From NCBI GenBank assembly GCA_038231275.1, contig JBBRLQ010000035.1:1-64000 (forward strand): a stretch of DNA of 64,000 bases, in the 5' to 3' direction. Positions within the stretch are counted from its first letter, which is position 1, and every line of letters begins with the position of its first letter. Positions 14,137 to 64,000 of this stretch are shown here, in pieces. The DNA is from Polyangiales bacterium. GTDB taxonomy: Bacteria; Myxococcota_A; Polyangia; Polyangiales; Polyangiaceae. A model generated the notes under the pieces. The model searched no databases, had not been told where the DNA came from, and saw only the letters and a list, made by a program, of their open reading frames with translations. Position numbers and translations under genes: made by a program.

Positions 14137-14182
14137 GGCGGGGATGCTACGCCGCGCGCCGCCGCCCGACTACACTGGCCCC

Positions 14183-15823
14183 ATGCGGAAGCTCCTGCCG
14201 ACCCTCGCCGTCGCGGCCGCGGTCGCGTGCTCCTCGACGAAGAGCGCACCCGTGACTGCCGCGCCGCCGACGAAGCCGACCGCGGCGCAGCAAGCGCGCG
14301 CCGACCAGCTCCTCACGGGTCCCGACTGGTACCGCCACGCCGTCGTCTACGAGGCGAACGTCCGCTCGATGGCCGACAGCAACGGTGACGGCATCGGCGA
14401 TCTCGCCGGGCTCACCGGCAAGCTCGACTACCTGAAGGGGCTCGGCGTCGACGCGATCTGGCTCATGCCGATCATGCCGAGCCCGTTCAAGGACTCCGGC
14501 TACGACGTCGCCGACTACCGCGGCATTGATCCCGCGTACGGCGACATGGCCGCCTTCGACGCGTTCCTCGCGGCCGCTCACTCGCGAAAGATCCGCGTGC
14601 TCCTCGATCTCGTCTTGAACCACACCTCGAGCGAGCACGCGTGGTTCAAGGACTCGCGCTCGAGCAAGACCAGCGCGAAGGCCGACTGGTACGTGTGGTC
14701 CGACACGCCGTCGCGCGCCGACATCGGGTGCGGGACGTACGGCCCGCAGTTCGGCGACGTCGCGTGGACGCTCGAGCCGGCGCGGAGCCAGTACTACTTC
14801 CACCGCTTCTACGCGCAGCAGCCCGATCTCAACTACCGCAACCCAGAGGTCGTGAAGGAGACGCTCGACACGGCGAGGTTCTGGCTCGACAAGGGCGTCG
14901 ACGGCTTCCGGTGCGACGTCATCGGCCTCCTCTTCGAGAGCGCGAAGGGATGTGACCTCATCCCCGAGACACTCGACTACATCCGCCAGCTCCGCGCAGT
15001 CCTCGACGGCTACCCCGATCGCGCGATGGTTGCCGAGTCCAAGATCACCAGCGTCGCGCCGTACTTCGGCAGCGGGAAGGACATGTTCCACATGGCCTTC
15101 GATTTTCCGTACGGCTACTTCTGGGGGCTCGCGTTCAACGCAGGGAACCGAAAGATCGCGTTCGACGCCCTCTCGACCTCGGCGACGGGGTTTCCGCCGG
15201 GCGCGCAGGACGCGTCGCTCATCGGGTCGCACGACGTGCAGCGCGCGTGGACGATCGCGCAGGGCCTTTCGTGGCGGCACCGCCGCGCCGCAGAGATTTC
15301 GATGCTCACCAAGGCGACGCCGTTCGTCTACTACGGAGAGGAGCTTGGCCTCCGCGCGGGCCGCGGCGTGGTCGTCGACACGCGAGACTCCGCGCGAACG
15401 CCGATGGGTTGGACGCGCGCGGCGGGGCATGGCTTCACCACGTCCGCCACGCCGTGGCTCGAGTTCGGCGAGGCGATCGACGACACGAACGTCGAGGCCG
15501 AGGACGGCGATCCCGCGTCGATGCTCACGTTCTACCGCCAGCTCCTCGCGTTCCGGCGCGGGCACGCGGTCTGGGGGACCGGTGACATGGTGATGCTCGA
15601 CGTCGACAACCCGTCGATCCTCGCGTTCGTGAGGAAGAACGACGAAGAAGCATTCTTGGTCATCGAGACCTTCGCGGAGGACGATCAGGAAGGGAGCGTG
15701 GCGACCGGTGAAGTGACGACGGCCGGGACCATCGTGCGGGGTGACGCGAGCGTGCGACTCGACGGAGGAACGTTGCGCCTCAAGGTACCGGGCGGCGGCT
15801 CGGCGATCGCGCGGCTTCGGTAA
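14183..15823 (+). CDS. GH13 alpha-glucosidase/alpha-amylase family lipoprotein
   Basis: Lipobox AVAC; DSNGDGIGDL, GYDVADY, DLVLNHTS, QPDLNY, GFRCDV, AE, SHD, YYGEELG. Confidence 0.93.
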   Translation: MRKLLPTLAVAAAVACSSTKSAPVTAAPPTKPTAAQQARADQLLTGPDWYRHAVVYEANVRSMADSNGDGIGDLAGLTGKLDYLKGLGVDAIWLMPIMPSPFKDSGYDVADYRGIDPAYGDMAAFDAFLAAAHSRKIRVLLDLVLNHTSSEHAWFKDSRSSKTSAKADWYVWSDTPSRADIGCGTYGPQFGDVAWTLEPARSQYYFHRFYAQQPDLNYRNPEVVKETLDTARFWLDKGVDGFRCDVIGLLFESAKGCDLIPETLDYIRQLRAVLDGYPDRAMVAESKITSVAPYFGSGKDMFHMAFDFPYGYFWGLAFNAGNRKIAFDALSTSATGFPPGAQDASLIGSHDVQRAWTIAQGLSWRHRRAAEISMLTKATPFVYYGEELGLRAGRGVVVDTRDSARTPMGWTRAAGHGFTTSATPWLEFGEAIDDTNVEAEDGDPASMLTFYRQLLAFRRGHAVWGTGDMVMLDVDNPSILAFVRKNDEEAFLVIETFAEDDQEGSVATGEVTTAGTIVRGDASVRLDGGTLRLKVPGGGSAIARLR

Positions 15824-49684: not shown

Positions 49685-50404
49685 TCAGGCGGCTTGGGCC
49701 TTGATCTCGGCGCTGCGGATCTCGGTGTAGACGGGCGGGGCTTCGAGCGAGAGGCGGCGACGCACTTCGCCGACGGGTAACGGGAGGAGCGTCTCCCACT
49801 CCTGTTCGGGGAACCACGCCGCCTTGAGGCCGCGACGGAAACCGTCGAGGATCGTCTTGCGCGCGTTCGCGCCGCCGCTCGGGGCGTTGAGGGTCTTGCT
49901 GAGGCCGATGACGATGATGAGGCCGATCGCAGGGTTCCACGTCTGCGCGAAGGTGAACGCCAGGAGGGCGGTCTCGCCGAGCACGTCGCCGGAGTAGCCG
50001 GTCGCCGCGTGCCAGAGATCGTGCGTGTCGCGCATGCGCGCGTGCGCCCATTCGAGGGAAGCGGGCATTGGCTGCTCGTGGGTCATCCCCTTGTCCCCCG
50101 CGGCGCGGATCCCGTCGGCCGAGATGTTCTCGCGGAGGACGAAGTCGAGGTACGCGCGGCCGAGCGATCCGTCGGGCATGCGCGCCAACGCGTCGCGATC
50201 GGCGAGGTGGTCGACGACGTCGGGGCGGCGCTCGAGCAAGCGTCGTCCCGCCTCGCTCCTCCGCAATCGCCGCGCGATCCGCGGGAGCGTGTCGCCCGAG
50301 AGCGACTCGATGATCGTGAAGACCTGGGGCAAATCGTCGGGATCCGCCGCGAGGATACGGGCGGCGCGGAGGGCTCGACGCGGCGCGAATTGAACGTAGG
50401 TCAT
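49685..50404 (-). CDS. Coq4-like protein
   Basis: PDGSLGRAY and HDLWH...GE Zn motif; AAGGAG RBS. Confidence 0.88.
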   Translation of the reverse strand: MTYVQFAPRRALRAARILAADPDDLPQVFTIIESLSGDTLPRIARRLRRSEAGRRLLERRPDVVDHLADRDALARMPDGSLGRAYLDFVLRENISADGIRAAGDKGMTHEQPMPASLEWAHARMRDTHDLWHAATGYSGDVLGETALLAFTFAQTWNPAIGLIIVIGLSKTLNAPSGGANARKTILDGFRRGLKAAWFPEQEWETLLPLPVGEVRRRLSLEAPPVYTEIRSAEIKAQAA

Positions 50405-50448
50405 GCGAAGAGCTCCTTTGGCGGACTCCCTTAGCTTTGGATCAATGA

Positions 50449-50481
50449 ACAATATTGTCAATAGCTCCGGACAAACTTGTC
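50449..50481. promoter_or_regulatory. Two putative TetR operators overlapping a -35 box
   Basis: ACAATATTGT (50449-50458) and GACAAACTTGTC (50470-50481); TTGACA on the minus strand at 50456-50461. Confidence 0.65.
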
Positions 50482-50512
50482 GGTACGTGTGGGGTGGGCG
50501 ATGCTGGCGAGG

Positions 50513-51136
50513 ATGCCCAAGCCCGCGAAAGGAAAGCCGCGGAGACGCCTGGACGCCGACGCCGCGCGGGCGCTCATCCTCGACGCAACCGAGAAGCGGC
50601 TCGTCGTGGTCGGTCCCTCGGGCATTCGCCTGCAGGAGGTGGCGGCCGACGCCGGCGTCTCGCACCCGACGGTGCTGCATCATTTCGGGAGCAGGGACCT
50701 GCTCGTGAAGGCGGTGATCTCGCGCTCCCTCCACGCGATCAACGCGTCGCTCGTCACCGCGATCGAGGCGTCGGGGGGAGACGAGTCGCGGCTCGAGGCC
50801 ATGCTCGACAACGTGGCGACCGCGCTTGAAGAGAGCGGGCACGCGCGCGTGATCCTGTGGCTCGTGCTCGAAGGTCACCGCATCGACGGCACCGACGTGA
50901 GGCTCACCCACGTCGTCGATGCGACCCACGCGCTACGCCTGGCGCGGAGGCCGCGCGGGAAAGCGACGCGCGAGGACACCGCGCGGACCGTGGTGCTCGC
51001 GTCGCTGGCGTTGGTGGCGGGCGCGGTGCTCGCGCCGACGATGCTGGAGAACGCCGGCCTCGGAGGAGGCCCGCGAAGCGCATCCGATTTTCGCAAATGG
51101 CTCGCGCGCCTTCTCTTGGCGCACTTCGACGCGTGA
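50513..51136 (+). CDS. TetR family transcriptional regulator
   Basis: ILDATE...IRLQEVAADAGVSHPTVLHHFGSRDLL. Confidence 0.93.
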   Translation: MPKPAKGKPRRRLDADAARALILDATEKRLVVVGPSGIRLQEVAADAGVSHPTVLHHFGSRDLLVKAVISRSLHAINASLVTAIEASGGDESRLEAMLDNVATALEESGHARVILWLVLEGHRIDGTDVRLTHVVDATHALRLARRPRGKATREDTARTVVLASLALVAGAVLAPTMLENAGLGGGPRSASDFRKWLARLLLAHFDA

Positions 51137-51162: not shown

Positions 51163-51786
51163 CTACGGCTTCGTGCCTTCGAGCATGAGCGGATCGGTCA
51201 AGGTGCCGCTGTAGCCGCCGTTGACCTGCCCGTTCTGGACGAAGAAGAAATATTGACCGCTGTGCTGCCCGCCGATCGCCGCGTCGATCGTGATGGTGGC
51301 GCCCGGCTCGGTGTCGAACGTGAAGCCGTGGATCTCCGCGCCCGTGGTCGTGCTCGAGTCGAGCTCTTGCCCTGTAGTGGAGAGGCGCGACGCACCGACC
51401 GGCGAGTCCGTCTTGAGGGCGATCGTTCCTTGGGCGACGTTCACGCGGATCGCGAAGTCGCAGGTGAGCGGCCCCGAGGTGTTCACGTTGGTGTCGCAGG
51501 TCCACCAGACGTGCCAGTGCCCGCCCGAGGAGTACTCGGTGAAGACGCCGACCCCGTCGCCCGGCTTGGCGTTCATCGTCTTGTCGGTGTCGATGTCGAC
51601 GAGGATGGGCGTCGCGCTGCTGGGGCCGCCGCTGCTCGTCGCGCCGCCGCCACCGCCACCTGACGTGCCGCCGGTGCCGCTCGGCCCGTAATCACGCGAC
51701 GGGGGAGGATCGCTACGGACGACGCACGCCGCCGTGAGCTGCGCGAGGACGGCGACGCCGAAGAGCGAGAGCTTGGAGAGGCTCAT
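51163..51786 (-). CDS. Hypothetical lipoprotein
   Basis: Lipobox TAAC, Gly/Ser linker, GGHWHVWWTCD; ATGA overlap with the upstream gene. Confidence 0.8.
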   Translation of the reverse strand: MSLSKLSLFGVAVLAQLTAACVVRSDPPPSRDYGPSGTGGTSGGGGGGATSSGGPSSATPILVDIDTDKTMNAKPGDGVGVFTEYSSGGHWHVWWTCDTNVNTSGPLTCDFAIRVNVAQGTIALKTDSPVGASRLSTTGQELDSSTTTGAEIHGFTFDTEPGATITIDAAIGGQHSGQYFFFVQNGQVNGGYSGTLTDPLMLEGTKP

Positions 51787-53222
51787 CGCCGACCCCCGCG
51801 CGAGCCGCCACCCCCACGGAACCCGCCGCCGCCGCTGGAGACGTGGGGCGCCGAGTAACTGGGCGTGGACTGGTGGAACGTGGGCGCCGACGAGTGATAG
51901 CTCGGCGTCGACGAGTGGAAGCCGCCGCTGCTCGGTGCCGAGTAGTGCTGCGTGGGCGCCGAGTAGGGGGCCGAGTAGTGCTGCGCGGGAGCCGAGTAGG
52001 GGGCCGAGTAGTGCTGCGCAGGAGCAGAGTAGTGCTGCGCGGGTGCCGAGTAGGGGGCCGAGTAGGCCGAGCGCGAGGACGGCGCGGAGTACGGCACCGG
52101 GTGCGGTGTCGGCGAGACGCCGCGGTACTGCTGCGCCGACGCGACCGGTGCGTGCTGGCCGAGCGTGGTCGGCGTGCTGCTTCCAAAGCGCGGAGCTTGC
52201 GTGTTCGCTTGCGCGTTGCCGAAGCGCGGCGCCGTGTTGGTCGAGGCCGGGAAGTGCTGCGCGACCTGCTGCGGAGGACGCGCGCCGACGGCGGTCGCAG
52301 TGGACGGCTTGGAGAACTGCTGCGCGCGCGCCAGACCGCTGTTGGTGCCGGAGGCCGGAGGATTCGTCACGCCGTAGGAGCGCGGGGGCGGACCACCGAC
52401 GGTCGGGTGCGCGACGCCGCGGCCGACGCTCGGGTTCGCCGGGACGTATGGACGCGTGTGCGACGCGACGACGGCGACCTGCGGACCCGCGACGATGTGG
52501 CCATTGAGGCCGCTGCCAACGAAGACATGCGAGCTGTGGCAGAAGACGAACGGCGCGACGGGCACGTACCCGATGCCGACGGCGTACCCGCCGTGCCAGT
52601 ACCAGGTCGGCGGCATCGGCGCCCATCCGACGTAGCCCCAGTCGTCGTAGCCCGATCGCCAGCTGACCCACGCGCCGGCGTACGTGCGGCCCGGGATCCA
52701 TCCCCACCCGCGGCCGCCGATGTAGACCCAGCGGCCGTAATGGAACGGCGCCCAGCCCCAGTCGTAGTCGCTGACCCAGACGTAGTCGTCGTCGTACGCC
52801 CAGTGACCGGCGGTCACGTACGGAGAGAACTCGGTGCCTACCACGGTCGGTGAAGGAGTCCACACGGTGCCGTAGGTCGAGTCGTCGACCCAGGTACCGT
52901 ACGGATCGAGCGCGGGCTTGAAGTCCGCGAGCGCGGCCGGATCGGTGTCCGCGTATTCGCTGCCGTCCGCGCCGACCTGGATGTCGCCGGCTTGCGGCGT
53001 GGCGTAGCTCGCCTCGGCGCCACCTTGCGCGCCGGGGACTTGGATCTGGGCGGGCGCGGTCATGTTCGGCGGCTCGCTCGCCGCGACGCTCTGCTCGGGC
53101 CCGTCGACGCCGGGCGGCGGAGGGTATTGCGCCTGCATGTTCGCCGACTCACCGCCGCAGCCGACCAACGCGGCGAGGGCGGGAAAGAGGAGCGCTGCGG
53201 CCAGACCTGCCAATGACTTCAT
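51783..53222 (-). CDS. DUF6600-like lipoprotein with a low-complexity tail
   Basis: Lipobox LVGC; LDPYGTWV, PYVTAGHW, WGWAPFHYGRW, AWVSWR, VGWAP. Confidence 0.85.
   Translation of the reverse strand: MKSLAGLAAALLFPALAALVGCGGESANMQAQYPPPPGVDGPEQSVAASEPPNMTAPAQIQVPGAQGGAEASYATPQAGDIQVGADGSEYADTDPAALADFKPALDPYGTWVDDSTYGTVWTPSPTVVGTEFSPYVTAGHWAYDDDYVWVSDYDWGWAPFHYGRWVYIGGRGWGWIPGRTYAGAWVSWRSGYDDWGYVGWAPMPPTWYWHGGYAVGIGYVPVAPFVFCHSSHVFVGSGLNGHIVAGPQVAVVASHTRPYVPANPSVGRGVAHPTVGGPPPRSYGVTNPPASGTNSGLARAQQFSKPSTATAVGARPPQQVAQHFPASTNTAPRFGNAQANTQAPRFGSSTPTTLGQHAPVASAQQYRGVSPTPHPVPYSAPSSRSAYSAPYSAPAQHYSAPAQHYSAPYSAPAQHYSAPYSAPTQHYSAPSSGGFHSSTPSYHSSAPTFHQSTPSYSAPHVSSGGGGFRGGGGSRGGRR
51940..52066 (-). 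repeat. Coding tandem repeat encoding (QH)YSAP
   Basis: Repeated GCCGAGTAGTGCTGCG / GCCGAGTAGGGG units encode YSAPYSAPAQHYSAPAQHYSAP. Confidence 0.85.
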
Positions 53223-53484: not shown

Positions 53485-53560
53485 GTCGCGCTCCTCTTCA
53501 GGTCGCGCTCCTCTTCAGAACGGGCCGCTATCTGAACGGGCCGACTCAGAACGGGCCGCT
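53485..53560. repeat. Nested short direct duplications at the 3' end of the sugar cluster
   Basis: GTCGCGCTCCTCTTCAG x2 (53485-53518); TCAGAACGGGCCGCT at 53515 and 53546, plus a variant at 53531. Confidence 0.85.
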
Positions 53561-54568
53561 GAACGGCTTGTCGGTGTTCTCGATACCGCCCGTGCCACGG
53601 GTGACCGCGCACGCCGCGAGCGCCGCGGCTTCGATCTCCTTCGCCCCCGGATAGAACGTCGGCTCGATCGCCTGGCTGCTCGGTACGGCGCTGTCGGGCC
53701 ACACCACGCGGCGCGGCGCAGCGCGGAGCGAGTCGAACGCGCGCTCCGTCACCGACGCGAGGACCTCACCGGCGACGCCGCACGGTCCCCAGTCCGAGTC
53801 CGCGACGACGAGGCGCCCGGTCTTTGCGACCGAACGGAGCACCGCCTCCATGTCGAGCGGACGAATCGTCCGCAGATCGATCACCTCGGCCGACACGCCA
53901 GCGCCGGCGAGCGCGGCGGCGGCCTTCGTCGATTCGGCGACCATCGGCCCGACCGCGACGAGCGAGACGTCGGTCCCGGCGCGCAGCACCGCCGCCTTGC
54001 CGAGCGGGACCACGTAGTGGCCTTCCGGCACGGGCGCGTCGTCCTCGTGCATCCACCGGTGCTCGATGAAGATGACCGGATCGTCGTCCTCGATCGCGGC
54101 GGCGAGGAGGCCCTTCGCATCTGCGGGGCTCGACGGCACGACGCACTTGATGCCCGGCACGTGGGAGAAGAGCGCGTGATGGCTCTGCGTGTGCTGCGGC
54201 CCGTTTCCCCATCCACGACCGACGACGGCGCGCACCACCATCGGCACGGTCTGCTGGCGCCCGAACATCGGCGCCCACTTCGCCGCGTGGTTGATGATCT
54301 GGTCCATCGTGAGGAGCGTGAAGTCGATGCGATGGTGGATCATCACGGGGCGCATCCCGAGGGTCGCCGCGCCGACGCACATTCCGGTGAGCGCGTTCTC
54401 GGCGAGCGGACCTTCGACGACGCGGTTGGGGCCGAAGCGCTCGAGCATTCCGGTGAGGGTCCCCCACACGGCGCGCGGATCGACGATGCCGACGCCGATG
54501 AGGAACACGTTCGGATCGCGCTCCATCGCGACCATGAGCGCGTCACGGATTGCTTCGCGGAACTTCAC
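53546..54568 (-). CDS. ThDP-dependent E1 beta-like subunit
   Basis: PLAEN, DQIINHAAK, DDPVIFIEH, IDLRTIRPLD; GTGA overlap with the alpha subunit. Confidence 0.92.
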   Translation of the reverse strand: MKFREAIRDALMVAMERDPNVFLIGVGIVDPRAVWGTLTGMLERFGPNRVVEGPLAENALTGMCVGAATLGMRPVMIHHRIDFTLLTMDQIINHAAKWAPMFGRQQTVPMVVRAVVGRGWGNGPQHTQSHHALFSHVPGIKCVVPSSPADAKGLLAAAIEDDDPVIFIEHRWMHEDDAPVPEGHYVVPLGKAAVLRAGTDVSLVAVGPMVAESTKAAAALAGAGVSAEVIDLRTIRPLDMEAVLRSVAKTGRLVVADSDWGPCGVAGEVLASVTERAFDSLRAAPRRVVWPDSAVPSSQAIEPTFYPGAKEIEAAALAACAVTRGTGGIENTDKPFSGPF

Positions 54569-55503
54569 GGCGCGCCTCCTTCCCACGCGGGCCACGGAGA
54601 GCTGCGCGCGTGGGCGAACGCGGCGTCGATGAGCGCCGAGATCTCGCTCTCCATCGCGTCTACCTCTGCGGGCGTGACGAGCGATCGCGCGCGCTCGAGC
54701 GGGCCGTTCTTTGCCCAACCATCGACCTCCGCCTTCGTGCGGTAGCCGAGATCGTCGTCCTCGTTGATGCCGCAGTGCTCGAGGACGCGGTACGTGTGGA
54801 ACTCGAGGAGCGTCGGTCCCGAGCCGCGTCGCGCGCGCTGCACGGCCTCCTCTGCTGCGCGCGTCACGGCACGGACGTCGTTGCCGTCGTGCGCCGACGC
54901 CGCCATCCCGAAGCGCTCGCCGTGCTTGTAGATGTCGGGCTGCGCCTGCCGATCCTTGATGTGCGTGTTCGTCGCGTAGAGGTTGTTCTCGCAGACGAAC
55001 ACGACCGGGAGCTTCCGCAGCGACGCGAAGTTCAGCGTCTCGTGGAACACGCCCTCTTCGACGGCGCCGTCGCCGAAGCTCGCGACCGCGACGCGATCCT
55101 GGCCGCGCATCGTGAACGTCAGCGCCGCGCCTGCCGCGTGCGAGATGGTCCCGGCGACGATCGCCGACGTGCCGGTGACGCCCGCCGCGAGATCGATGAG
55201 GTGCATCGATCCGCCCCACCCACGGCTGCACCCGTTCGCGCGCCCGTAGAGCTCGCTCATCATCGCCGGGAGATCGCCCCCCTTCGCGAGGTACCAGCCG
55301 TGCGAGCGGTAATAGGGGAAGACGAGATCGTCCTTGCGAAGCGCCGCGCACACGCCGACCGCGATCGCTTCGTGCCCCATGCACAGGTGCGGCGGCGAGC
55401 GCATCTCGCGGAGGTGGTAGGTCGTCTTGATGCGCTCCTCCACGCGACGGATGAAGAGCATGCGCTGGAAGAGATCGCGCGGCGAGGTGACGGCGGTGGA
55501 CAC
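54565..55503 (-). CDS. ThDP-dependent E1 alpha-like subunit
   Basis: GHEA, YRSHG, GGSMH, GDGAVEEG...ENN ThDP motif, TYR. Confidence 0.92.
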   Translation of the reverse strand: MSTAVTSPRDLFQRMLFIRRVEERIKTTYHLREMRSPPHLCMGHEAIAVGVCAALRKDDLVFPYYRSHGWYLAKGGDLPAMMSELYGRANGCSRGWGGSMHLIDLAAGVTGTSAIVAGTISHAAGAALTFTMRGQDRVAVASFGDGAVEEGVFHETLNFASLRKLPVVFVCENNLYATNTHIKDRQAQPDIYKHGERFGMAASAHDGNDVRAVTRAAEEAVQRARRGSGPTLLEFHTYRVLEHCGINEDDDLGYRTKAEVDGWAKNGPLERARSLVTPAEVDAMESEISALIDAAFAHARSSPWPAWEGGAP

Positions 55504-55530
55504 GATCCGATGATAGCGAACGACGTTCTT

Positions 55531-56637
55531 CTAGCGCCCGTAAAACGCGCGGATCTCGCCGATCATGAAGTCGACCTCGGGGTTCGTCAGGTACTGGTGC
55601 CCGGGCAAGGTCACGATGTCGGCGGCCTGCGCTTCGGCGATCGGGAAGTCGCCGCGCGCGTAGCCGAGATCTTTGGCCGCCGGCTGGAGGTGGAGCGGGA
55701 TCGGGTAGTGGATCTTGATCTCGATCCCCTTCTTGCCCATCGCCGCGATGAGGTCCGCGCGTCGCTGGGCGCGCACCATCGTGAGCTGGTAGGCGTTGCG
55801 TCGCTCCTTCGGACGCGGCGGGCACGAGATCTCGGGCACGTCGGCGAGGCCCGCGAAGATGCGCTCGGCGATGACGCAGCGCGCGTCGATCCAGCCGTCG
55901 ACCTTGTCGAGCACGTGATTGGCGACGACCGCCTGAATGCTCTGGAGGCGCTGGTTGATGCCCCAGATCGCGATCTCGTCGCGGTTGATCATGCCGTGGT
56001 TCCGGTACATGCGAAGCCACTCGGCGGCGCTCGCGTGGTGCGTTACCACGGCGCCACCGTCGCCCCACACATGGAGCGGCTTCAGCGGGTGCATGCTGAA
56101 GCCGGCGGCGTCGCCGAACGAGCCGGCGGCCTTTCCGGCGAACGTCGCGCCTACCGCCGGGCACGCGTCCTCGACGACGAGGAGCCCGCGTTTCTTCGCG
56201 ATCGCCATGATCGCCGGCATGTCGGGAGGGAGGCCGCCCCAGTAGACCGGAAGGATCGCCCTTGTTTTCCCTGTGATCGCGGCTTCGAGCTTCGTCGCGT
56301 CCATGGCGTAGACGTCGTCGGTGTCGACGAAGACGGGGCGCGCGCCGACCGCGACGATCGCGCCGGCGGTCGCGTAGAACGTGTTGACCTGGGTGATGAC
56401 CTCGTCGCCTGCGCCGACGCGGAGCGCCTTCAACGCGAGGACGAGCGCATCTGTGCCGGTGTTCGTGCCGACCACGTGCGGCACCCCGATGCGCGCTCCG
56501 AGCCGTCGCTCGAACTCGAGGACCGGCGCGCCGATCGTGAAATCACCGGTCCGCGCGAGCTCTTTGATCTTGCCGAGGATGGCGTCGATCTCCGGCTCGT
56601 CGAACTGACGGTCCAAGTAGCTGTAAGGGACTTTCAT
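55531..56637 (-). CDS. DegT/DnrJ/EryC1/StrS PLP-dependent sugar aminotransferase
   Basis: GTDAL, VEDAC, FSMHPLKPL (catalytic Lys), HYPIPLHLQ. Confidence 0.93.
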   Translation of the reverse strand: MKVPYSYLDRQFDEPEIDAILGKIKELARTGDFTIGAPVLEFERRLGARIGVPHVVGTNTGTDALVLALKALRVGAGDEVITQVNTFYATAGAIVAVGARPVFVDTDDVYAMDATKLEAAITGKTRAILPVYWGGLPPDMPAIMAIAKKRGLLVVEDACPAVGATFAGKAAGSFGDAAGFSMHPLKPLHVWGDGGAVVTHHASAAEWLRMYRNHGMINRDEIAIWGINQRLQSIQAVVANHVLDKVDGWIDARCVIAERIFAGLADVPEISCPPRPKERRNAYQLTMVRAQRRADLIAAMGKKGIEIKIHYPIPLHLQPAAKDLGYARGDFPIAEAQAADIVTLPGHQYLTNPEVDFMIGEIRAFYGR

Positions 56638-57746
56638 GGCGCGTAGAAGGAGCGGACCGCGTCGATGACGAGATCCTTCTGTTCGGGGTCCATCTCGGCG
56701 TAGAGCGGCAAGCTCACGATGCGTGACGTGAGCCACTTCGTGTTTGGAAACTCGTCCATGCGCACGCCGAGGTCGCGCGCGGCGGGCTGCTCGGGGATCG
56801 CGATCGGATAGTGGACCTTGGCGTCGACGCCCCGGGCCGCGAGGTGTTCGAGGAGCGCGGCGCGGCGCTCGGCCTGGATCACGAACGTCTGGTACGTGTG
56901 AAATTGTCCGTCGCGCTCGCGCGGCACGCCGACGACGCCCTCGAGCCGCGCGCACATGTCGAGCGCGATCGCGCGGCGCTCGTCGATCCAACCGTCGAGG
57001 TGCGTGAGCATGACATTCAAGATGGCCGCCTGGATGGTGTCGAGGCGCGAGTTGGTGCTCCATAGCTCCACCTCGTCACGTGTGCGGAGACCGTGATTTC
57101 TCGCCTTTTTGAGCCATTCGTAAAGAGTCTCGTCGTTCGTCGTGATGACGCCGGCGTCGCCAATGCCGTGGAGGTTCTTGAGCGGGTGCAGGCTGAAGCA
57201 TGCCGCGCGGGCGAGGCCACCGACGCGCTTGCCGCCGAGACGTGAGCCGACCGCCTGCGCCGCGTCCTCGATGACCGGCACGCCGCGCGCGCTCGCGATC
57301 GCGAGGATCGCCTCCATGTCGGCCGGGCGGCCCGCGAGGTGGACCGGGATGATGGCCTTCGTCTTCGGTCCGATCGCCGCCGCGAGCTTCGCCGGATCGA
57401 GGTTCATCTCGTCTTTCGTGACGTCGACGAAGCGCGGGGTGGCGCCGATGAGCGCGGCGCACGACGCGGAGGCGACGAACGAGTTGGGCGCGGTGATCAC
57501 CTCGTCGCCCGGGCCGACGCCGAGCCCGCGCAGCGTGAGGATGAGCGCCATCGTCCCGTCCGACACGCCGACGGCGAAGCGGGTGCCGCAGTACTCGGCG
57601 AAGCGTCGCTCGAACTCGGCGACCTCGGGCCCGAGGACGTACATGCCGTGGTCGACGACCTTCTCGATCGCCGCCATCAGCTCCGCCTTTACGCGGCGGG
57701 TGCGCCGCGCCAGAGCGACGTAGGGGACTTTCATCGGGGGCGGCAT
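56634..57746 (-). CDS. Second DegT-family sugar aminotransferase
   Basis: GTMAL, IEDAAQA, FSLHPLKNL, NSRLDTIQAA. Confidence 0.93.
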   Translation of the reverse strand: MPPPMKVPYVALARRTRRVKAELMAAIEKVVDHGMYVLGPEVAEFERRFAEYCGTRFAVGVSDGTMALILTLRGLGVGPGDEVITAPNSFVASASCAALIGATPRFVDVTKDEMNLDPAKLAAAIGPKTKAIIPVHLAGRPADMEAILAIASARGVPVIEDAAQAVGSRLGGKRVGGLARAACFSLHPLKNLHGIGDAGVITTNDETLYEWLKKARNHGLRTRDEVELWSTNSRLDTIQAAILNVMLTHLDGWIDERRAIALDMCARLEGVVGVPRERDGQFHTYQTFVIQAERRAALLEHLAARGVDAKVHYPIAIPEQPAARDLGVRMDEFPNTKWLTSRIVSLPLYAEMDPEQKDLVIDAVRSFYAP

Positions 57747-57747
57747 G

Positions 57748-58398
57748 TCACTCCGTCAACGTCCAATGGTACTCCCCCGTGTAGCCCGCCTGCGCGAAGA
57801 CCTCGCGCCAGCCGACGGGGTCGAAGTAGGTGAGCGCCGTGAGCTGCCAGCGCAGAAACTTCGTCTTTTGCTCCTCGTCGAGCCACGAGTCGACTTGCAC
57901 ATAGGCGTGCTTTCCGACGCGCTCGATCTCGCGCAATGCCTGGATGCAGCGCGGGAGCTCGAGGTTGTGGACGACGTTGATGGCGATGACCACGTCGAAC
58001 GAGTCGTCCGGAAACGGCAGCGCGTCGGCGCTCGCGCACACCAGGTGTGGCTTCACGTCCTCCATCGCGTTTTGGATGGCGTACTCGGAAACATCGACGC
58101 CGCGAACCTCGAGATCCGGCACCACCGTCGCGAGATCGTGCAGAAGGAACCCCTTCGCGCAGCCGACGTCGAGGACGCGATGACCGGCGCGGAGGCCGTA
58201 GAAATCCCGCATTCGCTCGGCGACCTTCACCCAGCGGCCGTCGTAGCGGTAGCCGCCGTAGCCCTGCCCGCGATCGCCATCGAAATACTCGCGGCCGAAT
58301 TTTTTCGCGATCTCGCGCTCGCTGGGGACGGCGGCGGCGCGCGCGTCGATGTCGCGCTTGGTCCGCGGGTAGCTGTCGAGGAGGTTCACTTCGCGCAC
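57748..58398 (-). CDS. Class I SAM-dependent methyltransferase
   Basis: GYGGYRYDGRW, VLDVGCAKGF, LPFPDDSFD. Confidence 0.9.
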   Translation of the reverse strand: MREVNLLDSYPRTKRDIDARAAAVPSEREIAKKFGREYFDGDRGQGYGGYRYDGRWVKVAERMRDFYGLRAGHRVLDVGCAKGFLLHDLATVVPDLEVRGVDVSEYAIQNAMEDVKPHLVCASADALPFPDDSFDVVIAINVVHNLELPRCIQALREIERVGKHAYVQVDSWLDEEQKTKFLRWQLTALTYFDPVGWREVFAQAGYTGEYHWTLTE

Positions 58399-59678
58399 GC
58401 GTCGCCTCGCCCCATGACGACGTGCTCCACGCCCGCGAGCCGCGTCTTCTCGGTGACGCCGACCCCGTCGATGACGAGAGGGCGTCGCATCGTGCGGAGC
58501 GCGGCGAGGTCCGGCTTCGCGAACACGTCCCAGTCGGTCATGACGAGGAGCGCATCGGCGCCGGCCAGCGCTTCATCGCGCGACGCGGCGAGCGTGAGCC
58601 CGCCTTCTTCTGGGACACGCACGATCGGATCGTACGCGCGAACGGTCGCGCGCCCGCGAAGCTCGCCGAGGACCTTCAGGGACATCGAGTTCTTCGTCGA
58701 GTCAGTGTCCTTCTTGTACGCGAGCCCCCACACCGCGAGGACCGGCGCCTTGGTGCGCGCGAAGACGAGCGCGTCGAGCTTGCGCCGAACCCACGCGTAG
58801 CGTCGCGCGTTGTAGTCGAGGAGCGTCTCGATGAACGCGACGTCGACCGCGCGCGCCGCCCCGAGCTCTTTCAACGTCACCATGTCGCGCTCGAGGTTGC
58901 CGCCGGCGATTCCCAGGCCCGGCCGAATGTACGCGGACCGTCCGATGCGTGCGTCCTCGCGAAGCGCGGGGACCATCTCGCCCCAATCGGCGCCGACGCC
59001 CTCGCAGAGATCGGAGAGCGTGTTCGCGTACGTGACTGCGGCGCACAGGTAGAGGTTGATCGCCGTCTTGGTGAGCTCGGCGCTCTCATAGCGCATCGGA
59101 AAGAGCGGGCAGCCGAAGCGACGCAGGCCTTCTTCGAGCCGCGGAGGCAGGGGCGACGTGGGATCGGCGCAGCCGAGGATGATCCTCTCCGGCTTCAGGA
59201 AACGGTCGAGCGCGCGGCCGAAGATGAGCGTCTCCACCCAGTAAATCACGGTAATTTTGGCGGCCGGACGCGCCGCGGCGACCTTCTCGGCGAGCGCGCG
59301 CATGAATCCTGGTGACACTTGGCTCATCACGGCGAGCGTCGCGCCCGCGGCGAGGTGCGGAATCGTCCGCTCGAGGAGCTCGTGCACGACACTGGGATCG
59401 CTGACGCCATTCTCGTCGGTGGGGACGTCGCGCGAGAGGACCACGAGCGAGGCTTCGGCGACACGCGCGAGATCCGTCGTGAACGTCATCCGCGCGCGCG
59501 ACGCCGTGAGGAGCTCGGCCAGCCCCGGCTCGTGCAGCGGCGCCTCCGCGCGCGAGAGCTTGGCGATTCGCTGGGCGTCGGGATCGATCCCGATGACCTC
59601 GCTGCCCATGCTCGCCCAGCCCACGCTCGACACGAGGCCGAGGTGCGACAAGCCCACGAACGCCGTGCGGCCGGTCAC
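58386..59678 (-). CDS. Atypical UDP-glucose/GDP-mannose dehydrogenase family protein
   Basis: GLSHLG, EPGL, SAELTK..N, D.RIG, GLAYKKDTD, YDP. The usual GG.C motif reads AGGN. Confidence 0.88.
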   Translation of the reverse strand: MTGRTAFVGLSHLGLVSSVGWASMGSEVIGIDPDAQRIAKLSRAEAPLHEPGLAELLTASRARMTFTTDLARVAEASLVVLSRDVPTDENGVSDPSVVHELLERTIPHLAAGATLAVMSQVSPGFMRALAEKVAAARPAAKITVIYWVETLIFGRALDRFLKPERIILGCADPTSPLPPRLEEGLRRFGCPLFPMRYESAELTKTAINLYLCAAVTYANTLSDLCEGVGADWGEMVPALREDARIGRSAYIRPGLGIAGGNLERDMVTLKELGAARAVDVAFIETLLDYNARRYAWVRRKLDALVFARTKAPVLAVWGLAYKKDTDSTKNSMSLKVLGELRGRATVRAYDPIVRVPEEGGLTLAASRDEALAGADALLVMTDWDVFAKPDLAALRTMRRPLVIDGVGVTEKTRLAGVEHVVMGRGDACAK

Positions 59679-60592
59679 GCCGGCCCCTCGAGTGTCGCCT
59701 TCGCCGCGTTCATGATGACGCGCGACACCCACGCGTCGTTCGCGCCGCTCGTCTTCTTCGCGCGGGCTTGCTCCTCGAAGTGCGCGAGGTCCAGGGTCCA
59801 CGTCGGATCGGGGCCGGTCGCGATCTCCCGGATTTCCTCGGGCGCGCCGCTCGGCAAGGTTCGCTTCCAGAAGAGGAGCTCGCTCTTGCCCCACTTGGTG
59901 AGACCATCCATGAGGAGCGCGCCCTTCTCGCCGACGACCTCGATCTGCCAGCGGTTCTTATAGGAGAGGAAGCTCACCTCGATCGTGAGCGTGCGATCCT
60001 CCGAGGCGAGCATCGCGTGATCGATGCCCTGCAGCTCGTAGCCTCGCCGCTGCCAGACGCGAAACTCTTGCCCGCCCTTGCCGAACACGAAGCCGGCGAG
60101 ATCGACGAGGTGGCTCGCGAGATCTTCGAGCACGCCGTACGTGCTGTCGCGCCAAGTGCCGAGGTGATCGCGCGCGGTGCCGTTCCCGTAGAACATGCGC
60201 ACGCGGTAAATGGCGCCGAGCGCGCCGGCGTCGAGGTGGCGCTTGAGCGCGACGACGTTCGGCTCGAAGTGGAAGTTGTACGACGTGTACCAAACGGCGC
60301 CGTGCGACGCGGCGCGCGCAGACAGATCCTGCACTTCGGCGGCGTCGAGGAGGAACGGCTTCTCGACGAGCGCGTGCTTGCCGCGATCGAGGAGCCAGCG
60401 CACCTGACCGAGCTTCACCGGGTTCGGCACCGCGAGGACCGCCGCGTCGAAGGTGCTCGGGTCGCAGTCCTCGAGGGCTTTGTGGTCGGCGGCGGGGTTG
60501 ACGGGATCGACCGTCGCGACGCATCGAGCCCCAAGCGCCGCCTTCCTTTTGCCGCCGATGTTGCCGAGGCCGACGACGACGTACCGCATCAT
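59675..60592 (-). CDS. Gfo/Idh/MocA family oxidoreductase
   Basis: VGLGNIG, HALVEKP, GVLEDLASHLVD. Confidence 0.9.
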   Translation of the reverse strand: MMRYVVVGLGNIGGKRKAALGARCVATVDPVNPAADHKALEDCDPSTFDAAVLAVPNPVKLGQVRWLLDRGKHALVEKPFLLDAAEVQDLSARAASHGAVWYTSYNFHFEPNVVALKRHLDAGALGAIYRVRMFYGNGTARDHLGTWRDSTYGVLEDLASHLVDLAGFVFGKGGQEFRVWQRRGYELQGIDHAMLASEDRTLTIEVSFLSYKNRWQIEVVGEKGALLMDGLTKWGKSELLFWKRTLPSGAPEEIREIATGPDPTWTLDLAHFEEQARAKKTSGANDAWVSRVIMNAAKATLEGPA

Positions 60593-62124
60593 CGGAAGTT
60601 CATCCGCTCCTCGATCGACTTGAGCTTCGCCTCGACGTCCTCCGGACTCACCGGCTGGTTGCCCTGCCGCTCGCACGCGACGGCAGCCGCGACGGCGCCG
60701 AGGATCGCGGCGATGCAGATGTCGCCGGTGACCGCCAGCGCGAGCGACGCGTACGCGAGCAGCGCGTCGCCGGCGCCGATCGGATCGCTGAGGCGATCGA
60801 CGACGGTGTCCACGGTGAAGAACTCGCGCGGCTCGAAGCCCGCGGTGCGGTAGCCGAGGAGCCCGCGCTCGCCCATCTTCAAGATGAGGTGCTTCGAGCG
60901 CGCCTTCTTCATGAGCTCGAGGGCGAGCGGCCGCACCACCGAGTCCTGATCGCCGAGCGCGAAGCGGGCCTCGCGCTCGTTGGGCGTGAGGAGATCGAAA
61001 TCCGTGAACTCGAGGATGTTGCCCCAGCGATTCGACACCTGGCTGTCGGCGACCTTGATCGCCTTCGTGGGAATCGCGTCCTTGAGCCGCCCAATCGTGT
61101 CGCGGTTGAAGATGCCGTGCCGGAAATCGCTGAAGATCACGATGTCAGCGTCCGTCGACGTGAGGCGGTCGAGGAGGTAACCCATCACCTTCTCGCTGAT
61201 GCGCCGGTTGTCGACGCGATCGACCTGCAGCATCTTGTGCCCGTCGGCGATGAAGCGCTCTTTGTGCGTCGTGGGGCGCGAGCGATCGACGAACGGCTGG
61301 CACTCGACGCCCGCGTCGGCCAGGTCCTTGAGGACGAACTCGGAGAGCGCGTCCTCGCCGAGCACGGTGGTGAACGACACGTCGGCGCCCGCAGCCTTCA
61401 CGTGGCGCGCGACGACCGCGGCGCCGCCCGTGAAGCGCTCGGTGTGGTCGTGCTTCACGCTGAACGTCGGGCTCTTGGCCGTCGCGCCGAGGAGCGAGCA
61501 GTAGCTGTAGCTGTCCACGATCGTGTCGCCCACGACGTGCACCTTCATTTTCCAGGCTTTTCGCACCGGCTCGCGCAGCTTGTCGAAGGTGACGCCCTCC
61601 GACTCCATGAGCGAGGCGAGCTTGGTGACGCCGAGCGACGGGCGGTGCGCCTCGATGAGCGCGGACGACGAGTAGACGACGTCGCCAGGCGTGAAGACGA
61701 TCTCGCCCCCGTACCCCTCCAGCGTGTCCATCTCTTCGCGCGTCCGCGGAGGCACGCCGTCTGCGAAGTATTCGTAGCCCTTCGCGTAGTAGTCGGGCTG
61801 AAGGCGCTTGATGTGCTCGATCGGCGTCGCGTGCGGGTCGATGATGACGTAGTCGACGAACTCGAGCGCCGCGAGGTTCTGCGCGCGGAGATCTTGCGGC
61901 ACGTATGGCCGCATCGTGCCCTTCGTGGCGTGGATGTCGGCGGTGAGGCTCGCGATGAGAATGTCGGCCTTCTCCTTCGCGTACATCAAGTGCCGGAGGT
62001 GGCCGGGGTGCACGATGTCGAACATCCCGTGGCACATGATGACCGAGCGCGTGCGCGGACGCGGGCCGATCGCCGCGGCGAGCTCCTCGAGCTTCTTCAC
62101 CTTCTTCGAGAAATCAGGCTTCAT
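60589..62124 (-). CDS. Bifunctional nucleotidyltransferase + PfkB sugar kinase (HldE-like, reversed domain order)
   Basis: N-terminal GMFDIVHPGH and KGYEY; C-terminal TPNERE and DPIGAGD. Confidence 0.9.
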   Translation of the reverse strand: MKPDFSKKVKKLEELAAAIGPRPRTRSVIMCHGMFDIVHPGHLRHLMYAKEKADILIASLTADIHATKGTMRPYVPQDLRAQNLAALEFVDYVIIDPHATPIEHIKRLQPDYYAKGYEYFADGVPPRTREEMDTLEGYGGEIVFTPGDVVYSSSALIEAHRPSLGVTKLASLMESEGVTFDKLREPVRKAWKMKVHVVGDTIVDSYSYCSLLGATAKSPTFSVKHDHTERFTGGAAVVARHVKAAGADVSFTTVLGEDALSEFVLKDLADAGVECQPFVDRSRPTTHKERFIADGHKMLQVDRVDNRRISEKVMGYLLDRLTSTDADIVIFSDFRHGIFNRDTIGRLKDAIPTKAIKVADSQVSNRWGNILEFTDFDLLTPNEREARFALGDQDSVVRPLALELMKKARSKHLILKMGERGLLGYRTAGFEPREFFTVDTVVDRLSDPIGAGDALLAYASLALAVTGDICIAAILGAVAAAVACERQGNQPVSPEDVEAKLKSIEERMNFR

Positions 62125-63104
62125 TTCATGAACTCGAACCACGCGCGCGTGGCTTCCTGGATGCGGTCGGGCGTCCACACCGGCGCCGATTTCCACGCGT
62201 CGATCTCGGCCAGCATCGCCGCGACGCCGTTCTCGAACCGCACCGTCGGCGACCACCCGAGCGCCGCGATCCGCGTCGTGTCGGCCCACGTCGTGTCGGG
62301 CTCGCCGGGCCGCTTGGGGACGTACACGACCTCGCCGCCGATCAGCTCGATGAGGCGGTTCACGGTCTGCGGATCGTTCGACCCGAGGTTGTAGACCGCG
62401 CCGCTCGGGGATTTCTCCGCTGCGAGAAGGAACGCCTCCGCGACGTCGGTGACGAAGACGAAGTCGCGCCGCTGGGTCCCGTCGCCGACGACCGTGAAGG
62501 GCTTGCCGTTCACCTTCTGCGCGAGAAAAACTCCGAAGACCGCGCCGTACGCGCCGGTCGTGCGGACGCGCGGACCGTAGACGTTGAACATGCGAATGGA
62601 CGCGACCGGGAGCTTGTAGACCTTCCCCCAGTGCAGCGCCGCCATCTCGCCCATGTACTTGCTGAGCGCGTACGGATACTCGGGCCGGATCGGCGCGCCC
62701 TCGGTCGTCGGCAACTCGGTCGCCACGCCGTAACAAGAGGAGGAGGCGGCATAGACGAACTTTTCGACGCCCGCGCGGCGCGACGCTTCGAGGACGGCGA
62801 GGGTGCCGTCGACGTTCGCGCGCATGTAGGCGATCGGCTTCTCGATGGAGGGGACGATGTCGCCGATGCCGCCGAAGTGGAAGACGTACTTCGCCTCCTT
62901 GAAGATGTCCGTATCCGCCGGGAGATCGCACATGTCGATCTCGTAGAGGACGACGCGCCGATCGCCTGCGTAGTGCGCGAGGTTCTCGCGGCGGCCGGTG
63001 ATCAGGTTGTCGACCACGCCGACCTCGAACCCGCGGGCGACGAGCAGGTCGACCATGTGGCTGCCGATGAAGCCTGCCCCGCCGGTGACGATCGCGCGGG
63101 GCAT
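62121..63104 (-). CDS. NAD-dependent epimerase/dehydratase (extended SDR)
   Basis: TGGAGFIG, ASSSCYG, YALSK, FNVYGP, RDFV. Confidence 0.93.
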   Translation of the reverse strand: MPRAIVTGGAGFIGSHMVDLLVARGFEVGVVDNLITGRRENLAHYAGDRRVVLYEIDMCDLPADTDIFKEAKYVFHFGGIGDIVPSIEKPIAYMRANVDGTLAVLEASRRAGVEKFVYAASSSCYGVATELPTTEGAPIRPEYPYALSKYMGEMAALHWGKVYKLPVASIRMFNVYGPRVRTTGAYGAVFGVFLAQKVNGKPFTVVGDGTQRRDFVFVTDVAEAFLLAAEKSPSGAVYNLGSNDPQTVNRLIELIGGEVVYVPKRPGEPDTTWADTTRIAALGWSPTVRFENGVAAMLAEIDAWKSAPVWTPDRIQEATRAWFEFMK

Positions 63105-63106
63105 CG

Positions 63107-64000
63107 TCAGCCGATCCCGCGGGCTTGGATCGCCTTCACGTTGAAGTAGCGCACGTCGGTGAGCGAGCCGGGCAAGCGCCCCGCCTTGAACGCGTGGCAC
63201 ATGCCGACGACCGCGTCCTCGATCGTCCGCTTCGGCGCCCAGCCGAGCTCTCGCCGGATCTTCTCGCTCGACACGTGGTACGAGCGCAAATCGTTGGACG
63301 GCACCGTCTCGAGGGTGATGGCGCCTCGCTCCGGCATCTCGCGCGTCACGACGTCCTTCACCATCGCGCCGAGCTGCGCGACCGTGTGGTTCTCGTAGCC
63401 GGCGTTGAACGTCTTCCCGGCGATCTTCTCCTTCGGCATCGTCATGAGCTCGACGTAGAGATCGGAGATGTCCTCGACGTGGATGTTCGGCCGCTTCTGC
63501 GCGCCGCCGAAGATCGTGATTTTGCCGTTGTTCACGGCCAAATTCGTGAGGATGTTCACGGTGAGGTCGAGGCGCATGCGCGGCGAGTAGCCGCACACGG
63601 TGGCGGGGCGGATGATGACCGTCGTGAAGTCGTCGCTCTGGTAGCGAAGGAGGATCGGCTCGCACATCCCCTTGAACTTGTTGTAGTCGGTGAGCGGCAC
63701 GAGGGGATGGTCCTCGGTGACCTCCGGCGCGTCGCTGACGCCGTACACGCTCGACGTCGAGGCGTAGACGAAGCGCTTCACGCCGGCCTCTTTCGAGATG
63801 CGGACCAGCGGCTCGAAGGCGTCGTAGTTGATCGACTTCGAGAGCTCGGGGTTCAGCTCGAAGCTCGGATCGTTCGACACGCACGCGAGGTGGATGACGA
63901 CGTCGACGCCGCGCAGCGCCGTGGCGAGCACTGCGGCGTCGCGCAGATCACCCTTCGTCTCTTCGAGGTTCGGGTTGCCCTTCGGCAACACGTCGTCGCC
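63107..64000 (-). CDS. NAD-dependent epimerase/dehydratase, 5' end outside the window
   Basis: HLACVSNDPS, STSSVYG, YNKFK, R.ATVCGYSPRMRLDL.VN, RPNIH. Confidence 0.9.
   Translation of the reverse strand, partial: GDDVLPKGNPNLEETKGDLRDAAVLATALRGVDVVIHLACVSNDPSFELNPELSKSINYDAFEPLVRISKEAGVKRFVYASTSSVYGVSDAPEVTEDHPLVPLTDYNKFKGMCEPILLRYQSDDFTTVIIRPATVCGYSPRMRLDLTVNILTNLAVNNGKITIFGGAQKRPNIHVEDISDLYVELMTMPKEKIAGKTFNAGYENHTVAQLGAMVKDVVTREMPERGAITLETVPSNDLRSYHVSSEKIRRELGWAPKRTIEDAVVGMCHAFKAGRLPGSLTDVRYFNVKAIQARGIG

Follow-up and report, generated by a model that had tools for sequence, protein, structure and literature searches.

A Cysteine-Less Branch of the UDP-Glucose Dehydrogenase Family and Its Candidate Role in a Putative Cassette for Higher-Carbon Sugars

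The stretch of DNA considered here (hereafter the window) covers positions 1 to 64,000 of contig JBBRLQ010000035.1 from a Polyangiales bacterium (GenBank assembly GCA_038231275.1). On its minus strand lies an operon of sugar-nucleotide genes, one of which encodes a member of the UDP-glucose dehydrogenase (UGDH) family with Asn in place of the catalytic Cys. An earlier reading of the window (the original prediction) proposed that this enzyme might stop at the C6 aldehyde of a hexose. We describe the gene, its conserved active-site changes, and the cassette of genes in which its relatives are found, and we argue that the protein probably acts with a neighboring Gfo/Idh/MocA-type oxidoreductase on the side chain of a nucleotide-activated sugar of seven or eight carbons.

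The Cysteine-Less Gene and Its Conservation

Translation of the gene (Table 1) gives an uninterrupted open reading frame (ORF) of 430 codons that begins with GTG and ends in TGA. Its product matches the three Pfam domains of the family above their cut-offs (PF03721 at residues 5-173, PF00984 at 198-291, and PF03720 at 315-410), and its score against TIGR03026 (218.7 bits; cut-off 189.8) places it in the family at large. It falls far below every curated cut-off of the named equivalogs, among them AglM, TuaD, UDP-ManNAc dehydrogenase, and the PRK15057 UGDH, the scores against cut-offs being 167/670, 164/700, 94/750, 67/459, and 48/757 bits. The closest solved UGDH by sequence is 4a7p (E = 1.7e-45, 159 bits). 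An AlphaFold2 model built with 40 homologues (pLDDT, the predicted local distance difference test, 95.0; pTM, the predicted template-modeling score, 0.90) matches UGDH folds at template-modeling (TM) scores of 0.88-0.90, with BceC (2y0c; TM 0.88, 26% identity) as the best structural match.

Motifs were compared in a HMMER alignment to the solved UGDHs 4a7p, 3gg2, and 2y0e. In this alignment GLGIAGGNLERD of the UGDH-like protein lies opposite GPGYGGSCFPKD of the solved enzymes, with Asn261 (codon AAC, 58896-58898) at the position of the catalytic Cys and Arg264 at that of the Lys; the Cys of the GGxC(F/L)PKD motif is absent. GLSHLG (residues 9-14) aligns with GTGYVG, so that the canonical GxGxxG dinucleotide loop is missing, and MSQV (118-121) aligns with KSTV. 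The Lys/Asn helix of the solved UGDHs is matched by ESAELTKTAINL, and K204, N208, R264, and D265 are all present. The replaced Cys, the two altered motifs, the retained helix, and the full three-domain length had all been named in the original prediction, and each is borne out. The exchanged residues presumably correspond to ones that work on canonical UGDHs links with the second half-reaction; PDB titles single out Tyr10 of BceC ("the final step of UGDs reaction") and, for a thiohemiacetal complex of human UGDH, Thr131 and Glu161. Lys204, Asn208, Asp265, and Glu149, by contrast with the changed motifs, are retained, and we take them to correspond to the residues that serve alcohol oxidation in canonical UGDHs. 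Judged from its sequence, the protein cannot form a thiohemiacetal or a thioester.

These features extend well beyond the window. A word-index protein search returned 4175 proteins at E <= 1e-10 among 8000 scored candidates, the best 120 of them 59-71% identical to the query, and in 32 homologues (59-72% identity) GLSHLG, S119-Q120, K204, N208, and G259-G260-N261-x-E263-R264-D265 are invariant. From a scan of 1.84 billion cluster representatives (50% identity) the best 150 were kept (212-485 bits, identity down to about 31%). The single Cys at site 261 among them belongs to P0176, a 942-amino-acid (aa) protein in which two canonical UGDHs stand head to tail and both copies add to the score; with P0176 left out, the query and 149 representatives formed an alignment of 150 sequences. 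At site 261 this alignment has Asn in 118 sequences, His in 16, Thr in 13, Gln, Val, and Asp in one each, and Cys in none. R264 is present in all 150 and D265 in 148, followed by K204 (147), N208 (146), Q120 (144), E149 (140), H12 (135), and the Asp32 that would bind the NAD ribose (122); the Lys/Asn/Asp set for alcohol oxidation is thus nearly constant. The second Gly of GxGxxG is Ser in 83 of the 150, Thr in 37, and Trp in 12, the Trp occurring together with Thr261 and Ala263 in a sub-branch of those 12 sequences. No Cys column is universal in the alignment; the commonest are C190 (117/150), C225, and the column of query Ala76 (102/150 each).

The best score of a solved canonical UGDH is at most 159 bits, as against the 212-485 bits of the clade representatives. 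A canonical paralogue in the same genome (contig C8), which keeps GAGYVG, KSTV, NPEFLKEG, and GGSCFPKD, is 24-33.5% identical to the clade. By these score gaps the Cys-less proteins appear to form a clade apart from canonical UGDHs, one that is, on the pattern of its residues, a real, conserved, and presumably neofunctionalized branch of the family. The expectation of a conserved motif of the GGN/GGT type also held, with Asn, His, or Thr at site 261 in 147 of the 150 sequences; the pattern goes well past what chance would give, and random decay is ruled out by the motifs invariant in the 32 homologues together with the conservation over the larger alignment. The loss of the Cys is genuine and conserved, and it goes together with further changes in the active site; oxidation by four electrons to a uronic acid, by way of a thiohemiacetal, is therefore very unlikely. 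The name under which the homologues stand in databases, "UDP-glucose 6-dehydrogenase," is almost certainly wrong for this clade.

A plasmid collection gave 32 matches, all at <= 35% identity and annotated as ordinary members of the UGDH family; none resembled the clade (their motifs were not checked). Among proteins of >= 754 aa, the only lengths searched for longer forms, there were four UGDHs with intein-type Pfam domains and no Gfo fusion. UGDH-family proteins of 875-915 aa (P0272-P0275) carry intein and LAGLIDADG domains.

Neighboring Genes and the Cassette Across Phyla

The gene lies in a tightly packed operon (Table 1). The TGA stop of the upstream Gfo/Idh/MocA gene overlaps the GTG start of the UGDH-like gene by 4 nucleotides (nt; GTGA), and in a 35-sequence alignment of the Gfo protein G10, G13, and E77-K78-P79 are invariant. 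ATGA overlaps flank the next gene, which encodes an HldE-like bifunctional protein, on both sides. On the downstream side an in-frame GTG of the methyltransferase gene overlaps the stop of the UGDH-like gene (GTGA, 58386-58389). The four junctions from the first short-chain dehydrogenase/reductase (SDR) to the methyltransferase (SDR/HldE-like, HldE-like/Gfo, Gfo/UGDH-like, and UGDH-like/methyltransferase) are therefore all 4-base ATGA or GTGA overlaps. The HldE-like protein matches rfaE_dom_II at residues 20-156 and rfaE_dom_I at 188-499, both below cut-off. Its domain order is reversed relative to HldE, and the same architecture is found in all six of the other loci scanned with Pfam. The "Epi1" SDR is 58-69% identical to its counterparts in related loci.

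Table 1. Genes of the operon and of a second sugar locus in the same genome (positions are those of the window unless a contig is named)
Feature	Position	Strand	Basis and remarks
Thiamine diphosphate (ThDP)-dependent E1 beta-like subunit	53546-54568	minus	Transketolase pyrimidine-binding and C-terminal domains
ThDP-dependent E1 alpha-like subunit	54565-55530	minus	TIGR03182, 290 bits against a cut-off of 394; alternative GTG start possible at 55503
DegT/DnrJ/EryC1 sugar aminotransferase, second of tandem pair	55531-56637	minus	Pfam
DegT/DnrJ/EryC1 sugar aminotransferase, first of tandem pair	56634-57746	minus	Pfam
Class I S-adenosylmethionine (SAM) methyltransferase	57748-58398	minus	Pfam
Cys-less UGDH-family gene	58386-59678	minus	430 aa; three-domain profile matches, motif alignment
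Gfo/Idh/MocA oxidoreductase	59675-60592	minus	305 aa; Pfam; 35-sequence alignment
HldE-like bifunctional protein	60589-62124	minus	N-terminal cytidylyl/adenylyltransferase-like domain, C-terminal PfkB kinase
Extended SDR, GDP-mannose-4,6-dehydratase type ("Epi1")	62121-63104	minus	Pfam
Extended SDR epimerase/dehydratase ("Epi2")	63107-64000	minus	Pfam; continues past the window to contig position 64108
Second sugar locus (L085)	contig C1, 752000-767306		NTP-transferase, 393-aa ORF with no Pfam match, GHMP kinase, SIS isomerase, HAD phosphatase, transaldolase

Beyond the methyltransferase the operon continues with a tandem pair of DegT/PseC-like aminotransferase genes, whose junction, from the ORF coordinates, is apparently also an ATGA overlap; the pair stays together in those related loci that carry DegT. 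The E1 alpha/beta pair that follows (53546-55530, minus strand) encodes relatives of pyruvate dehydrogenase E1 that do not reach the equivalog cut-offs, and neither an E2 nor an E3 gene was seen near it. In other genomes a split transketolase or acetolactate-synthase-like enzymes take the position of E1, which gives the impression that ThDP enzymes are interchangeable there provided that they transfer a C2 unit. Downstream of the operon lie genes for a 414-aa protein with a C-terminal Coq4 domain and for a DUF6600 protein (49685-50929 and 51783-53222, minus strand).

Past the window the same contig (C35) holds another SDR, a family 2 glycosyltransferase (GT2), a homologue of the cassette's third SDR, and a second methyltransferase. 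Between the latter two is a 655-aa ORF with no Pfam match (66585-68552 of the contig, minus strand; 13486-15453 of locus L001), which could be a transferase that uses the cassette sugar. The window locus has no transaldolase, SIS, or HAD genes. These occur on contig C1 of the same genome, together with an NTP-transferase and a GHMP kinase, in a locus that also contains a methyltransferase, a GT2, a GDP-mannose 4,6-dehydratase, and another SDR. The ten cassette-linked SIS genes that best match the SIS protein encoded there are 59-66% identical to it.

A pattern scan of 185,579 species-level genomes, one for each species, found at least 599 stretches of this kind, of which at least 545 were confirmed. 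Gene neighborhoods were counted by tblastn with the window neighbors in the best 80 of these confirmed loci; many of the 80 are incomplete, and the counts of neighbors are lower bounds. Record titles place the 80 loci in Rokuibacteriota/Methylomirabilota, Bacillota, Chloroflexota, Cyanobacteria, Verrucomicrobiota, Acidobacteriota, Alphaproteobacteria (Azospirillum, Tardiphaga), Nitrospira, Elusimicrobia, and one Thermoplasmata archaeon.

The Gfo gene accompanies the UGDH-like gene in 77 of the 80 loci, and the three misses (L006, L010, and L026) begin at the UGDH-like match itself, making the association 77/77 where upstream DNA exists. The two alignments lie within 335 nt of each other in 65 of the 77 loci, about 0.8-1 kb apart in 11 (in several, with the third SDR between them), and 7.9 kb apart in one. 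One clade representative, P0122 (719 aa, 57% identity), joins a Gfo and a UGDH-like part in a single protein; two others, P0228 and P0256, are SDR fusions. Nearly as frequent are the HldE-like nucleotidyltransferase/PfkB protein (75/80) and the three SDRs ("Epi1," 68/80; "Epi2," 66/80; the third, 67/80), followed by the methyltransferase (50/80). The transaldolase is found in 48 loci (45 of the 56 with at least 2 kb of upstream DNA), HAD in 49, and the SIS isomerase in 41 at >= 45% identity or 46 at any identity. E1 alpha or beta occurs in 31 loci and the split transketolase in 16, for a total of 46 with any ThDP enzyme; DegT occurs in 19 (the second of the pair in 17), and 51 have either a ThDP enzyme or DegT. 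Pfam scans of six low-GC loci confirmed the families seen in the window and added a transaldolase, HAD phosphatase, third SDR, NUDIX protein, split transketolase or acetolactate-synthase-like ThDP enzymes, and DegT. The constant partners are the Gfo, HldE-like, and SDR proteins, usually with transaldolase, SIS, and HAD; the ThDP enzymes and DegT are accessory modules.

Close relatives seldom share the cassette. Among 30 genomes of the same genus, family, and order there was one match at E <= 1e-60, a partial gene of 75% identity in a same-genus genome, and a same-genus genome that is 95% complete had no match to the UGDH-like query; for these two reasons we regard the cassette as accessory and patchy. 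In the metagenome-assembled genome of the Thermoplasmata archaeon (locus L021) it stands among two NeuB-type synthases, GNAT acetyltransferases, a sulfotransferase, and a CMP-sugar-type cytidylyltransferase, which suggests a combined glycan island for higher sugars.

Proposed Function and Its Alternatives

By analogy, the UGDH-like protein is most likely the counterpart of LmbL, a protein of the lincosamide octose pathway, that is, one of two enzymes acting jointly as a side-chain oxidoreductase/dehydratase on a nucleotide-activated heptose or octose. The specific reading that we prefer, to which we give a probability of about 0.55, is that the UGDH-like and Gfo proteins together withdraw two electrons from a 7- or 8-carbon sugar in nucleotide-activated form, turning its secondary C6 alcohol into a ketone.

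The sugar nucleotide would be assembled by the transaldolase, the SIS isomerase, the PfkB kinase domain, the HAD phosphatase, and the nucleotidyltransferase domain; for the window genome the transaldolase, SIS, and HAD proteins would be supplied from contig C1. In the UGDH-like protein the machinery of the first half-reaction appears to be kept (Asp32 of the NAD site, Glu149, Lys204, Asn208, and Asp265), and such a site would oxidize the C6 hydroxyl once. A ketone, and not a hexose aldehyde, is expected because the cassette enzymes build a sugar nucleotide of seven or eight carbons, in which C6 is a secondary alcohol. The residues of the second half-reaction seem to have been replaced (Cys by Asn, the Lys of PKD by Arg, the Thr of KSTV by Gln, and the Tyr of GxGYxG by His), an exchange that we attribute to thiohemiacetal formation, a second hydride transfer, and thioester hydrolysis being neither possible nor needed. 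With the translationally coupled Gfo enzyme the protein probably makes up one functional unit. The Gfo enzyme, which has an NAD loop and an EKP lysine of its own, may complete the reaction, either by eliminating a distal hydroxyl and handing the hydride back or through a further redox reaction, and the unit would then perform a distal dehydration or redox rearrangement of the side chain, as LmbL and LmbZ/CcbZ would on GDP-octose. The resulting keto sugar could be aminated by DegT, extended by ThDP-dependent addition of a C2 unit, reduced or epimerized by SDRs, and methylated, in a mix that varies by locus. What the data show directly are the sequence motifs and how well they are conserved, the fold, the synteny, the overlapping genes, and one fusion; the substrate, the carbon oxidized, the roles of the two partners, and the product are inferred from them.

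Several points weigh against this reading. The altered second Gly of GxGxxG means that NAD binding by the UGDH-like protein is not assured, and another Cys, C190, is kept in most of the clade. The window locus by itself lacks the transaldolase, SIS, and HAD genes, and activation there would be HldE-like (PfkB plus a cytidylyltransferase-like domain), whereas lmb clusters use a GHMP kinase and an NTP-transferase. Finally, in PMC4351081 the best non-lincosamide match of CcbL, the celesticetin counterpart of LmbL, was 33% identical as of 2015, a value no better than that of canonical UGDHs against the Cys-less clade.

The strongest rival exchanges the roles within the pair: the Gfo enzyme would oxidize, and the UGDH-like protein would be an NAD(P)H-dependent ketoreductase, an epimerizing partner, or a dehydrating component at C6/C7 of a higher-carbon sugar. 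The dinucleotide-binding glycines and EKP lysine of the Gfo protein and the altered glycine-rich loop of the UGDH-like protein both favor such an exchange, and the tight pairing and the one fusion would fit the hand-over of an intermediate or hydride in either direction. The retained Lys204, Asn208, Asp265, and Glu149, which serve alcohol oxidation in canonical UGDHs, are compatible with either direction. We consider the exchange unlikely.

Less probable again is the interpretation closest to the original prediction, that of a hexose-nucleotide 6-dehydrogenase halting at the C6 aldehyde, which DegT would aminate or the ThDP E1 pair would extend by two carbons. The absence of the Cys and of any universal substitute for it agrees with such a halt, as do the two DegT genes and the E1 alpha/beta pair that follow in the window operon; ThDP enzymes, as E1 or split transketolase, are found in 46 of the 80 loci, a moderately positive co-occurrence. 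Yet no ThDP enzyme was detected in the other 34 loci and DegT is confined to 19, so that both partners are accessory; the genes for building a 7- or 8-carbon sugar nucleotide and the Gfo gene are, on the other hand, near-constant. A free sugar aldehyde, moreover, needs no obligatory second oxidoreductase, and all hexose-specific equivalog models are far from their cut-offs. The earlier interpretation is thus partly supported as a whole: the halt before a uronic acid stands, given that no second oxidation is possible without the Cys, but a ketone on a higher-carbon sugar is expected in place of a hexose aldehyde, and the aldehyde's proposed acceptance by DegT has the window operon behind it and the wider set of loci against it. 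The precedent of LmbL with LmbZ/CcbZ had been overlooked in that interpretation.

The weakest alternative, a pseudo-enzyme without catalytic activity whose sole task is to bind the sugar nucleotide or to serve the Gfo enzyme as a scaffold, would account for the lost Cys, the altered GxGxxG (with Trp in 12 of the 150 sequences), and the constant pairing with another oxidoreductase, but is hard to credit in view of the conservation of R264, D265, K204, N208, Q120, and Asp32 (150, 148, 147, 146, 144, and 122 of 150) down to about 31% identity, which points to selection on catalysis.

Returning to the side-chain ketone, a broader proposal may be put forward as speculation, with appreciably less than even odds. 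The UGDH-like/Gfo pair would be a general side-chain dehydratase or oxidase for higher-carbon sugars, and the product of the cassette an undescribed nucleotide-activated sugar, aminated or methylated, with eight carbons (C8) or, after extension by ThDP enzymes or branching, with nine or ten (C9-C10), destined for the surface glycans of at least several hundred species from bacterial phyla and some archaea; the lincosamide octose branch would then be a specialized offshoot of a pathway that is itself of primary type.

The known part of this picture is one characterized precedent for an enzyme of this kind, in an antibiotic pathway, that of the lincosamides. The wide occurrence of the enzyme in cassettes that presumably build glycans, and the product of the cassette, did not turn up in the literature that we searched. 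These searches found no account of a Cys-less UGDH clade outside lincosamides, and in the literature on LmbR-type transaldolases in a polysaccharide context they found nothing on the present cassette. With so large a clade (at least 545 of 185,579 species-level genomes) and partner genes that are nearly fixed, a single biochemical characterization would allow many genes to be annotated afresh, besides giving a lead to an undescribed higher-carbon sugar in soil and aquatic bacteria (Rokuibacteriota/Methylomirabilota, Verrucomicrobiota, Acidobacteriota, and Alphaproteobacteria such as Azospirillum and Tardiphaga) and in one Thermoplasmata archaeon. If the side-chain ketone reading is correct, the UGDH scaffold can be reduced to a two-electron enzyme by swapping the residues of its second half-reaction.

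Comparison with the Lincosamide Octose Pathway and Other Systems

In lincosamide biosynthesis GDP-octose is reportedly processed by 6-epimerization, 6,8-dehydration, 4-epimerization, and 6-transamination (Wang et al. 2020, PNAS). On these steps, we assign the 6,8-dehydration to LmbL with CcbZ, because LmbM is an epimerase and CcbS an aminotransferase. According to PMC12945683, which cites Wang et al. 2020, GDP-octose is turned into GDP-lincosamide by LmbM, LmbL, CcbZ, and CcbS. Upstream of this, LmbR makes an octulose phosphate from ribose 5-phosphate and a C3 donor, according to PMC5854111. PMC4351081 lists a transaldolase (LmbR/CcbR), a C8 isomerase (LmbN/CcbN), a C8 kinase (LmbP/CcbP), a C8 phosphatase (LmbK/CcbK), a guanylyltransferase (LmbO/CcbO), an epimerase (LmbM/CcbM), and an aminotransferase (LmbS/CcbS). 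It further names LmbL/CcbL as a "C8 dehydrogenase" (CcbL has 436 aa; LmbL is called a "nucleotide sugar dehydrogenase") and LmbZ/CcbZ as a "C8 oxidoreductase," and it gives Acidobacteria, Sorangium, Thermodesulfatator, and Methanosarcina as sources of the closest non-lincosamide homologues.

Much of this inventory recurs in the cassette. Both systems have a "nucleotide sugar dehydrogenase" of about 430 aa and a Gfo/Idh/MocA-type oxidoreductase, the likeness of LmbL/CcbL and LmbZ/CcbZ to the window genes being one of enzyme class, length, and gene context. The lincosamide pathway and the cassette loci also have in common a transaldolase, an isomerase, a kinase, a HAD phosphatase, a nucleotidyltransferase, an SDR epimerase, and a DegT-type aminotransferase. 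The octose-type gene set is found in related loci; in the window genome it is split between contigs C35 and C1, with the locus on C1 forming a set like LmbO/P/N/K/R that is apart from the window cassette. Even the 4-nt overlaps of the window operon have their like in the lmb genes, in which the run lmbL-M-N-Z-P-O overlaps by 4 bp (PMC7014725). The cassette differs in its extra SDRs, methyltransferase, and ThDP enzymes, and it is without the nonribosomal peptide synthetase, mycothiol, and resistance genes of the lincosamide clusters. It occurs in many phyla and therefore probably serves a glycan rather than an antibiotic.

With the canonical UGDHs (BceC, 2y0c; UgdG, 4a7p; human UGDH) the protein shares the three-domain fold (TM 0.88-0.90), the Lys/Asn helix, the Asp of xKD, and the Glu of NPEF. 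It differs from them, at 24-34% identity, in having Asn for Cys, ERD for PKD, MSQV for KSTV, GLSHLG for GxGYVG, and, toward the C terminus, DGVG for DxRN. The WbpA/WbpB/WbpE route (a UDP-GlcNAc 6-dehydrogenase, a Gfo-type 3-dehydrogenase, and a DegT aminotransferase) draws on the same trio of families that stands together in the window operon. WbpA-type enzymes are four-electron, Cys-dependent dehydrogenases. A reading of the WbpA/B/E type was rejected: the Cys is absent, the hexosamine-acid equivalogs are far below their cut-offs, and the heptose- or octose-building genes are foreign to Wbp.

A functional analogue may be seen in the SDR 4,6-dehydratases of the RmlB/GMD type, which oxidize an alcohol, eliminate the hydroxyl two carbons away, and return the hydride. 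The chemistry proposed here would differ from theirs in being divided between two unrelated proteins and in taking place on an exocyclic side chain.

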